Shown here piece after piece: positions 1 to 47,037 of a stretch of DNA of 64,000 nucleotides. Made by a program: the position numbers and the translations under genes. Origin of the DNA: Escherichia coli (GTDB lineage Bacteria; Pseudomonadota; Gammaproteobacteria; Enterobacterales; Enterobacteriaceae); assembly GCF_044647545.1 (NCBI RefSeq), contig NZ_CP172818.1; one strand, 5' to 3'. The first letter of the stretch is position 1. Each line of letters starts with the position of its first letter. Under the pieces are notes generated by a model that had not been told where the DNA came from, searched no databases, and worked only from the letters and a program-made list of their open reading frames with translations.

Positions 1-1358
1 GAAGTAAACGCGGCGTGCCCCGGGGTGTCCAGGAAGGTGATCATGCCGTTTTCAGTTTCAACGTGGTATGCACCAATGTGCTGGGTAATGCCGCCCGCTT
101 CGCCAGAGGCCACTTTCGTTGAACGAATGTAGTCCAGCAGAGAGGTTTTACCGTGGTCAACGTGACCCATGATGGTCACAACCGGCGCGCGCGGTTCAGC
201 CGCTGCACCCGTGTCACGGTCGCTCATTACCGCTTCTTCCAGCTCGTTTTCACGACGCAGAATAACTTTGTGGCCCATCTCTTCAGCAACCAGCTGTGCG
301 GTTTCCTGATCGATAACCTGGTTGATGGTTGCCATTGCGCCCAGTTTCATCATCGCTTTGATGACCTGAGAGCCTTTAACCGCCATCTTGTTCGCCAGTT
401 CGCCAACGGTGATGGTTTCACCGATCACAACGTCACGGTTAACGGCCTGAGCAGGCTTCTGGAAGCCTTGCTGCAGCGAAGAACCTTTACGTTTTCCGCC
501 TTTACCGCCACGTACTGCTGCGCGTGCTTCTTCACGATCAGCTTTTGATTCAGCGTGTTTGTTGCCTTTCTTCGGACGCGCAGCTTTCGCGTTACGACCA
601 CGGCCACGGCCGCCTTCGACTTCACGATCGCTTTCGTCTTCTGCCTGGCGAGCATGTTGAGAAGTAGTGACGTGATAATCGCTGGAATCTTCAGTCGGTT
701 CCGCGTTATCAGTCCATTTGTTTTCTTCCGCCATACGACGTGCTTCTTCAGCAACGCGACGTGCTTCTTCTTCGAGTTTACGACGCGCTTCTTCTTCGGC
801 TTTACGCTTGAGCTCTGCAGCTTCCTGCTCACGGCGGGCTTTTTCAGCCTGGGCGTTTTTAGTCATATCGTCTTGTTGATTGCTCACTTTGTCTTTTTCC
901 GCAGCTTCACGTTTCGCTTGTTCAGCAGCTTCGCGCTTAGCTTGTTCTGCGGCCTCACGTTCAGCTTTTTGTTGCGCCTCACATTTGGCCGATTCTTCTG
1001 CCTCACGACGGGCTTGCTCTTCCGCTTCACGCTGCGCTTGCTCTTCCGCAGCAAGGCGTTCAGCCTCTTGCGGATCGCGTTTCACAAAGGTGCGTTTCTT
1101 GCGGACTTCGATTTGTACCGATTTGCTTTTTCCACCGGTACCAGGAATGTTAAGGGTGCTGCGTGTTTTACGTTGCAGCGTCAATTTGTCCGGGCCTGAA
1201 TTTTTCTGATTCAGGTGGTCAATCAAAGTCTGTTTCTCTTGTGCAGACACAGAGTCGTCAGCAGACTTCCGGATACCTGCATCAGCAAATTGCTGTACCA
1301 GGCGTTCCACGGAGGTCTGTCGCTCTGCGGCCAGCGTTTTAATCGTTACATCTGTCAT
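1..1358 (-). CDS. infB: Translation initiation factor IF-2, N-terminal ~452 codons; gene continues beyond window start
   Basis: Minus-strand frame from ATG at 1356-1358 translates [16 protein letters not shown]..., recognised as the IF2 N-terminus; missing from ORF track because it runs off the window edge; low-complexity A/E/R/K repeat region. Confidence 0.9.
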
Positions 1359-1382
1359 GCTGTTCCTTCCTGCTACAGTTTA

Positions 1383-2870
<1,488 letters not shown>

Positions 2871-3367: not shown

Positions 3368-3432
3368 AAAAAAAGGGCCTAAAGCCCAGTTATTCTGTAG
3401 TCAGATAACAAAAAACCCCGATAAATCGGGGC
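3368..3432 (-). terminator. Two tandem hairpin plus U-run structures between metY and rimP (intra-operon terminators/attenuator)
   Basis: Minus-strand RNA: ccccgau-uu-aucgggg followed by uuuuuug (3410-3432), and a weaker gggc...gccc hairpin followed by U7 (3368-3387). Confidence 0.5.
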
Positions 3433-3556
3433 TTTATATAACTGAACCCTATAACCGCAACTGCGGTCTGGAGCACTTTCCAGAAGGATTTTTTCAAATC
3501 CCACTACGAAGGCCGAAGTCTTCACAGTATATTTGAAAAAGGACTCTAAGGGAAAG

Positions 3557-3633
<77 letters not shown>

Positions 3634-7413: not shown

Positions 7414-7500
7414 TGGTACCGAGGACGGGACTTGAACCCGTAAGCCCTATTGGGCACTACCACCTCAAGGTAGCGTGTCTACCAATTCCACCACCTCGGC
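7414..7500 (-). tRNA. leuU: tRNA-Leu, 87 nt with long variable arm
   Basis: Reverse complement reads GCCGAGGTGGTGGAATTGGTAGACACGCTACCTTGAGGTGGTAGTGCCCAATAGGGCTTACGGGTTCAAGTCCCGTCCTCGGTACCA. Confidence 0.9.
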
Positions 7501-14149: not shown

Positions 14150-14190
14150 GCAAAAAAAATACCGACCCGGGTACAGGTCCCAGGTCAGCT
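14150..14190 (-). terminator. graL: Terminator-like hairpin plus U8 in the greA leader (expected 3' end of the GraL leader RNA)
   Basis: Minus-strand RNA gaccugg...ccggguc hairpin followed by gguauuuuuuuug, about 95 nt upstream of the greA start codon. Confidence 0.4.
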
Positions 14191-14305
14191 ACAATTCACA
14201 TTTTGATAGTCATTTTACCCTGAAGTTCCCGAAGGGTCATCGTTTACTTTATAGGGCGTTGCGCCGTAGTATGACGGCTCGATTCCAGGTTGTTAGCGCG
14301 AGATT

Positions 14306-15750: not shown

Positions 15751-15769
15751 CCCCGGCACATGGCCGGGG
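15751..15769. terminator. GC-rich hairpin in the 33-bp gap between convergent dacB and obgE
   Basis: ccccggc-acat-ggccgggg inverted repeat; no strong T-run, so terminator function is tentative. Confidence 0.3.
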
Positions 15770-35767: not shown

Positions 35768-35888
35768 GTGCGGCCTGAAAAACAGTGCTGTGCCCTTGTA
35801 ACTCATCATAATAATTTACGGCGCAGCCAAGATTTCCCTGGTGTTGGCGCAGTATTCGCGCACCCCGGTCTAGCCGGGGTCATTTTTT
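35768..35888 (+). ncRNA. arcZ: ArcZ (RyhA/SraH) Hfq-dependent sRNA, convergent with and overlapping the arcB 3' end
   Basis: Sequence GTGCGGCCTGAAAAACAGTGCTGTGCCCTTGTAACTCATCATAATAATTTACGGCGCAGCCAAGATTTCCCTGGTGTTGGCGCAGTATTCGCGCACCCCGGTCTAGCCGGGGTCATTTTTT, ending in a hairpin plus T-run. Confidence 0.8.
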
Positions 35889-44375: not shown

Positions 44376-45788
<1,413 letters not shown>

Positions 45789-45909
45789 GGTGTTCTGGAA
45801 AGCGCCTCGCATAATCTGAAGAAAACCAATGTAATACGCACATCTGGATTGTTACCGGCCGATGCAGATCCCGGCGTATAGCTGATTCCATTATTCAACA
45901 CTGCGCCAT

Positions 45910-47037
45910 ATGAAGGGACAGATAATGGAATCGCTCTCAGAAGGAACCACAGCAGGCTACCAGCAAATCCACGACGGCATTATTCATCTGGTCGATAGCG
46001 CCCGGACGGAAACGGTACGTAGTGTTAACGCGTTAATGACCGCCACATACTGGGAAATTGGCCGACAAATTGTCGAATTTGAACAAGGTGGCGAGACCAG
46101 GGCTGCGTATGGTGCGCAGCTAATCAAGCGACTATCAAAGGATTTAAGTCTAAGGTATAAGCGTGGGTTTTCCACCAGGAATTTATGGCAGTTTAAGAAT
46201 TTTTATATTTGTTTTCAACGAATTGAAATTGTGCAGACACTGTCTGCACAATTCACCCCCACAATTCGCCAGACACTATCTGGCGAATCTTGCCATTTAG
46301 CGCAACTTGCCAAATCTTTCCCCCTGCCCTGGTCCACTTACGTCCGTTTGCTTTCTGTTAAAAACGCTGACGCTCGTAGCTTTTATGAGAAAGAAACACT
46401 CCGCTGTGGCTGGTCTGCTCGTCAGCTCGAACGGCAAATTGCGACCCAATTTTATGAGCGGACACTACTGTCACATGACAAATCAGCCATGCTGCAACAA
46501 CACGCTCCTGCCGAGACGCATATTCTTCCGCAACGGGCGATACGCGATCCCTTTGTGCTCGAATTTCTGGAATTGAAAGATGAATATTCAGAATCCGATT
46601 TTGAGGAGGCGCTGATCAACCACCTGATGGATTTCATGCTGGAACTTGGGGATGATTTTGCCTTTGTTAGTCGACAGCGAAGGTTACGCATTGATGACAA
46701 CTGGTTTCGTGTCGATCTGCTGTTTTTCCACCGCCGTTTACGCTGCCTGCTAATCGTCGATCTAAAAGTGGGCAAATTCAGCTATAGCGATGCCGGACAG
46801 ATGAATATGTATCTCAACTACGCCAAAGAGCACTGGACGCTACCGGATGAAAATCCGCCCATCGGTCTGATTCTCTGTGCAGAGAAAGGAGTCGGAGAAG
46901 CGCATTATGCACTGGCTGGTTTACCTAACACCGTTCTGGCGAGTGAATATAAGATGCAACTACCTGATGAAAAACGACTCGCGGATGAACTCGTTCGAAC
47001 ACAGGCGGTGTTAGAGGAAGGCTATAGACGCCGTTAA
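45910..47037 (+). CDS. yhcG: DUF1016 / PD-(D/E)XK nuclease-superfamily protein YhcG
   Basis: 375-aa ORF MKGQIMESLSEGTTAGYQQIHDGIIHLVDSARTETVRS...; C-terminal region has restriction-endonuclease-like D...(E/D)xK spacing (RVDLLFF, IVDLKVGKF); alternative start at ATG 45925 (MESLSEG). Confidence 0.8.
   Translation: MKGQIMESLSEGTTAGYQQIHDGIIHLVDSARTETVRSVNALMTATYWEIGRQIVEFEQGGETRAAYGAQLIKRLSKDLSLRYKRGFSTRNLWQFKNFYICFQRIEIVQTLSAQFTPTIRQTLSGESCHLAQLAKSFPLPWSTYVRLLSVKNADARSFYEKETLRCGWSARQLERQIATQFYERTLLSHDKSAMLQQHAPAETHILPQRAIRDPFVLEFLELKDEYSESDFEEALINHLMDFMLELGDDFAFVSRQRRLRIDDNWFRVDLLFFHRRLRCLLIVDLKVGKFSYSDAGQMNMYLNYAKEHWTLPDENPPIGLILCAEKGVGEAHYALAGLPNTVLASEYKMQLPDEKRLADELVRTQAVLEEGYRRR
46227..46253. 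repeat. 27-bp palindrome, copy 1 (inside yhcG CDS)
   Basis: aattgtgcagaca-c-tgtctgcacaatt: perfect 13-bp arms around a single central base. Confidence 0.7.
46263..46289. repeat. 27-bp palindrome, copy 2 (inside yhcG CDS, 9 bp after copy 1)
   Basis: aattcgccagaca-c-tatctggcgaatc: 11 of 13 arm positions complementary; same AATT....CAGACAC core as copies 1 and 3. Confidence 0.7.

Follow-up and report, generated by a model that had tools for sequence, protein, structure and literature searches.

Internal in-frame start codons of infB in an Escherichia coli strain match the mapped K-12 starts of IF2-beta and IF2-gamma

The infB gene of Escherichia coli K-12 is a described case of tandem translation, which later papers trace to Plumbridge et al. 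(1985), Nyengaard et al. (1991) and Sacerdot et al. (1992). According to PMC13245402, the "internal GUG158 and AUG165" codons start IF2-2/beta and IF2-3/gamma, and both N-termini have been reported on the evidence of N-terminal peptides. Two point mutations, g474c in the third base of codon 158 and t494c in the second base of codon 165, abolish IF2-2 and IF2-3 and leave IF2-1 functional, and the short forms persist in the del1 allele, whose deletion stops 32 nt upstream of the IF2-2 start (Madison et al., PMC3334882). Furthermore, the internal start of infB was detected in both K and B strains of E. coli by retapamulin ribosome profiling (Ribo-RET; bioRxiv 10.1101/520783), and Salmonella has a homologous pair of infB proteoforms (PMC11005335). 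Initiation at these codons is an established fact in K-12 and BL21 and has also been reported in Salmonella, and a passage in PMC1780047 that cites Laursen et al. (2002) states that two or three isoforms are made in other Enterobacteriaceae too.

The isoforms of E. coli have masses of 97.3, 79.9 and 78.8 kDa; a Domain I of 157 residues, which is exclusive to IF2-alpha, binds NusA, and the beta and gamma products differ by seven residues only (PMC12297416). Differences between the isoforms in their binding to NusA, in tolerance of DNA damage and in growth have been reported (PMC12297416, PMC3334882). Among other E. coli genes, clpB and mrcB resemble infB in that a full-length and an N-terminally truncated protein arise from one mRNA by use of an in-frame internal start (bioRxiv 10.1101/520783). 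In contrast to this general scheme, infB has two closely spaced internal starts with only a weak Shine-Dalgarno-like match; clpB and mrcB enter this comparison solely through their listing in that study.

The infB locus and its start codons

The sequence analysed here, referred to as the window, is a stretch of 64,000 nt from an E. coli genome (GCF_044647545.1, contig NZ_CP172818.1). On the minus strand of positions 1-1500, an infB open reading frame begins at ATG1 (1358-1356) and remains open past the window start, and translation of positions 1-1358 yields IF2 from its N-terminus to codon 452. The gene order across the window is infB, nusA, rimP, metY, argG and onwards, and it agrees with a collinear stretch of K-12 MG1655 that starts at position 3314657. 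Of 5426 complete E. coli genomes, 5424 matched window positions 1-1500 over at least 80% of the query, with infB and nusA annotated in the matching regions, and the nearest genomes showed one mismatch (99.9% identity over 1500 nt). Sequence identity, collinearity with K-12 and the Pfam domains of a full-length orthologue all identify the gene as infB in the nusA-infB operon. The relevant features are the following.

1..1358, minus strand: infB (translation initiation factor IF2), codons 1-452; identified by translation, 99.9% identity to annotated E. coli infB and collinearity with K-12 b3168
1356..1358, minus strand: ATG1, start of full-length IF2-alpha (IF2-1), with an SD-like GGAAGGA upstream at 1364-1370
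888..1355, minus strand: Domain I, present in IF2-alpha only, codons 2-157; first IF2_N sub-domain, IF2_assoc and charged linker
885..887, minus strand: GTG codon 158, internal start of IF2-beta (IF2-2); coincides with the start of K-12 CDS YP_010283915.1 (PMC13245402, PMC3334882)
864..866, minus strand: ATG codon 165, internal start of IF2-gamma (IF2-beta', IF2-3); coincides with the start of K-12 CDS YP_010283916.1 (PMC13245402)
870..902, minus strand: internal translation initiation region, codons 153-163 (GCG GAA AAA GAC AAA GTG AGC AAT CAA CAA GAC); A-rich, predicted unpaired, synonymous sites strongly conserved
1383..2870, minus strand: nusA, directly upstream of infB in the same operon; from the list of open reading frames and the annotation of matching regions

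An earlier note on this DNA had placed a GTG at codon 158 (885-887) and an ATG at codon 165 (864-866) of the minus-strand gene, the latter followed by TKNAQAEK. A recount from ATG1 showed these positions to be right to the base, and the residues are borne out by the translation. The same note had taken the two codons to be those known to initiate the shorter IF2 forms. Indeed, the MG1655 RefSeq annotation holds three infB coding sequences (the full-length one, YP_010283915.1 and YP_010283916.1) which, at the window offset, end at 1358, 887 and 866, and the codons also match the published GUG158 and AUG165 and the sites of g474c and t494c. Alignment with E. coli infB likewise puts both codons at the mapped internal starts. 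It should be noted that 20 of the 452 in-frame infB codons are ATG, GTG or TTG, and that GTG158 and ATG165 as bare codons are not beyond chance. Their significance therefore lies in their position-for-position identity with the mapped K-12 starts, together with their conservation across species.

The K-12 gene (b3168) shares with the present locus the metY-rimP-nusA-infB operon context, the start codons 1, 158 and 165, and an identical initiation region. No differences from K-12 were found over infB nucleotides 427-560, which correspond to -45 to +88 relative to GUG158. The identical stretch thus includes 45 nt on the upstream side of GTG158 and 66 nt beyond ATG165, and covers the 32 nt upstream of GUG158 that are kept in the del1 allele. 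A 48-mer spanning both codons was found exactly in 5301 of 5426 E. coli genomes and with 1-2 mismatches in a further 122; in the one variant that was inspected, the sole difference was at the synonymous third position of codon 159. The window therefore almost certainly carries E. coli infB with classical tandem translation, in which IF2-alpha, IF2-beta and IF2-gamma all come from one mRNA. The view of the earlier note that the arrangement is intact is sound, since infB nucleotides 427-560 are identical to those of K-12 and all features that can be judged from the sequence are present, and synthesis of the three isoforms in this strain would be predicted from this intact sequence. No sequence features arguing against tandem translation were found in the infB part of the window. 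The arrangement is, as such, already known, being that of K-12 in another E. coli strain, and its significance is one of annotation: the strain has the usual infB arrangement with three isoforms, which is a textbook example of how internal initiation lets one gene make several proteins.

Conservation of the internal starts among Enterobacteriaceae

To place the two codons in a wider context, one genome per species was scanned with a degenerate DNA pattern for infB codons 81-92, an anchor that lies upstream of the internal starts and is neutral toward them. The scan gave 66 loci, nearly all from Enterobacteriaceae plus Yersinia aldovae. One locus labelled 'uncultured Clostridiales' (L008) was dropped because its anchor matches while the downstream sequence is not alignable as IF2, and two loci (L028 and L053) were dropped because their downstream sequence is too short. 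Start-codon counts consequently refer to 64 usable sequences, namely 63 others and the window. One further locus, L054 (Enterobacter sp. EA-1, CP025776.1), was excluded from the entropy and accessibility analyses because its frame is lost after about codon 167. The infB translation of this locus diverges after ...DEMTRQP and again near codon 198, which suggests frameshift errors in the assembly. In another record, L048 ('Citrobacter freundii strain M-21'), the IF2 linker equals that of L034 (Atlantibacter subterranea) over 160 aligned residues and is unlike that of the other Citrobacter loci; this record may be mislabelled.

Val158 is encoded by GTG in 64 of 64 enterobacterial sequences, a count that does not represent independent observations, as the taxa are related; the same tree, however, underlies all columns. 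Other conserved valine columns use GTA, GTG, GTT and GTC in mixture, with the exception of Val85, which is GTC in all 64 sequences. The invariance of a single codon is therefore not unique to codon 158. The surroundings of GTG158 are conserved as well: synonymous variation is zero at codons 153, 154, 157, 158, 159 and 161, and the mean synonymous entropy at codons 150-163 is 0.26 bits, versus 0.79 bits elsewhere. The lowest sliding window of synonymous variation within codons 81-229 covers codons 149-163, with a near-tie at codons 104-118 (window positions 1005-1049; mean of 0.29 bits), which is a repetitive region.

ATG165 is less constant than GTG158. It is present in 54 of the 64 sequences and absent from 10 (L013, L018, L023, L026, L034, L037, L038, L039, L048 and L060), where codon 165 is AAA, GCA, GCG, GAA, TCG, GTA or GTG and GTG158 is kept. 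Species without ATG165, among them Trabulsiella, Shimwellia, Atlantibacter and Yersinia aldovae, may make two IF2 forms only. This raises the question whether GUG158 alone has been selected, with AUG165 being secondary and dispensable and its product having no function separate from that of IF2-beta. We consider this somewhat less likely than not. The replacement of ATG165 in lineages that all retain GTG158 speaks in its favour, as do the ordinary variability of codons 164-168 and the small difference of seven residues between the two products (PMC12297416). However, both N-termini have been reported in E. coli (PMC13245402), and AUG165 lies within the same region of the mRNA that is predicted to be open. 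Compared with published work, the invariance of GTG158, the loss of ATG165 in 10 of 64 sequences and a region that is synonymously frozen and predicted to be open represent a small quantitative addition.

Initiation signals, RNA accessibility and origin of the short forms

Pairing with the 3' tail of 16S rRNA was strongest at ATG1 (-6.5 kcal/mol) among the 20 in-frame start-type codons. Between positions -20 and -4, the best pairing at GTG158 amounts to -3.5 kcal/mol and involves solely the GGA of the invariant GCGGAA, while the best value at ATG165 is -1.9 kcal/mol. A strong, GGAGG-like Shine-Dalgarno sequence 5-9 nt before GTG158 or ATG165 was looked for by pairing energy and was not found. 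A mechanism in which the internal starts depend on such a sequence was rejected on these energies (-3.5 and -1.9 kcal/mol, as opposed to -6.5 kcal/mol for ATG1).

The surroundings of the internal starts are distinguished by their composition and their predicted openness. The A content is 46-48% in the surrounding 63 nt versus 31% in the infB fragment, and local folding predictions over 439 windows of 30 nt rank those centred on codons 158-165 as the eight most accessible. For 62 other species, folding likewise put the most accessible window of the 480-nt stretch at codons 158-166 in 51 cases. These accessibilities are thermodynamic predictions. No stable or unusual RNA structure was detected around the site, and the 141-nt region folds like its shuffled versions (z = -0.11). 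The internal site thus resembles an open, A-rich initiation site with a weak Shine-Dalgarno sequence, as judged from the folding and pairing models.

We propose the following course of events for the infB mRNA. Ribosomes would start at AUG1 to give IF2-alpha of 97.3 kDa and, independently and on the same mRNA, at the in-frame GUG158 and AUG165 to give IF2-beta of ~79.7 kDa and IF2-gamma of ~78.9 kDa. At the internal site, the 30S subunit would load directly on the open, A-rich and sequence-conserved coding stretch and start at GUG158 or, seven codons on, at AUG165. Most likely, internal initiation is independent of strong Shine-Dalgarno pairing, a step that we infer from the modelled pairing and folding. 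Direct loading of the 30S subunit on an open A-rich stretch reportedly agrees with what Laursen et al. (2002, Genes Cells) concluded.

The absence of a strong Shine-Dalgarno sequence at both codons could also be taken to mean that Val158 and Met165 are encoded by GTG and ATG merely as ordinary elongation codons without a role in initiation in this strain, the more so as start-type codons are common in frame (20 in 452). This view is highly improbable, however, because both codons and their flanks agree at every base with the sites mapped by experiment in K-12. In addition, GTG158 is invariant and synonymous variation around it is depressed across genera, and no other part of the mRNA is predicted to be as open.

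A different explanation holds that short IF2 does not come from internal initiation: either the transcript is truncated, owing to an internal promoter or to RNA processing, or IF2-alpha is cut by proteolysis. This was considered historically, and the metY-nusA-infB operon has multiple promoters and processing sites (PMC6511841). Nevertheless, we found no sigma-70-like promoter on either strand of window positions 700-1500. Moreover, point mutations in the start codons alone remove the short forms while IF2-1 is functional (PMC3334882), and Ribo-RET arrests initiating ribosomes at the internal site (bioRxiv 10.1101/520783). The consensus of published work is already that the short forms arise although no transcript begins between codons 1 and 158. 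We therefore attach hardly any weight to truncated transcripts or proteolysis as the source of the short forms, and retain tandem translation from internal starts as the best explanation.

Predicted isoforms, the codon 126 variant and other parts of the window

Pfam analysis of a full-length orthologue placed IF2_assoc at residues 56-94 and IF2_N in two stretches, the best of which, the second IF2_N, lies at 314-364; GTP_EFTU and IF-2 were also present. Codons 158 and 165 thus fall between IF2_assoc and the second IF2_N. Because they precede the second IF2_N as well as the GTPase and later domains, the short forms lose Domain I alone. Starting at either codon, they would lack the 157-residue Domain I, consisting of the first IF2_N sub-domain and the linker, and would retain the second IF2_N along with the GTPase and fMet-tRNA-binding domains. 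Since infB exceeds the window, masses were computed from the 452 window residues joined to the C-terminal part from FDAARGOS_497. The resulting values of 97.30 kDa for IF2-alpha, 79.74 kDa for IF2-beta and 78.93 kDa for IF2-gamma match the published ones (97.3, 79.7-79.9 and 78.8 kDa), and the short forms keep the functional core. In view of the intact site, we expect the roles of the isoforms in NusA binding, tolerance of DNA damage and growth to be normal in this strain.

Over the 452 infB codons, the window differs from K-12 at 13 nucleotides, of which 11 are synonymous and two lie in codon 126. The resulting R126C exchange is the sole amino-acid difference and falls within the alpha-specific Domain I. 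Codon 126 (981-983, minus strand, with the SNP at 983) is TGT (Cys) in the window, CGT in FDAARGOS_497 and CGC (Arg) in K-12. The site lies 94 nt upstream of GTG158 and thereby beyond the 32-nt upstream segment that is retained in del1. An off-centre 65-mer containing the SNP had no exact match in 5424 complete E. coli genomes, so R126C may be either private to this sequence or a sequencing error.

In over 60 species of enterobacteria, the block GCGGAA..AAAGUGAGC.AAUCAA around GUG158 is without synonymous variation. Beyond being open, it could serve as a specific recognition element, with ribosomal protein S1 or an IF2/IF3-dependent autoregulation as examples of what it might act in, and set the ratio of alpha to beta; alternatively, R126C could alter alpha-specific functions. 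Both ideas come from the conservation pattern, and we consider this further reading unlikely. If the block did act as a recognition element, R126C in the NusA-binding Domain I, which is found in IF2-alpha only, might change functions specific to this isoform.

Compared with the nearest complete genome, FDAARGOS_497, the window shows very few differences over ~50 kb. In the dacB-obgE intergenic region, a 6-nt deletion (TTTTGC) was found at 15769/15770, where K-12 has ~150 nt extra. The 3' end of gltD carries a 1-nt deletion and a ~72-nt deletion at 45784-45792. As a result, the gltD open reading frame (44388-45788) encodes 466 residues ending in ...AADGI* versus 472 residues ending in ...AADGIMNWLEV*, the last six codons being replaced, and a GC-rich hairpin downstream of gltD is removed by the deletion. 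The deletion junction is shared by no complete E. coli genome and is thus private. Further along, the window differs from FDAARGOS_497 by a SNP (45860) and by five inserted nucleotides, CAGAT (45865-45869), both just upstream of an open reading frame for a yhcG-like PDDEXK nuclease (45910-47037). At 45788-45793, the 7.1-kb K-12 segment gltF-yhcA-yhcD-yhcE(IS5)-yhcF is missing from this lineage, and the yhcG-like gene directly follows gltD, as it does in FDAARGOS_497 and related strains. The window also contains the following RNA features, all of which are expected in this region of the E. coli genome.

3368-3468, minus strand: rimP leader, Rfam gathering-level match
14154-14275, minus strand: greA leader, Rfam gathering-level match
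35768-35875, plus strand: ArcZ sRNA, Rfam gathering-level match
3560-3633: tRNA gene metY
7417-7500: tRNA gene leuU
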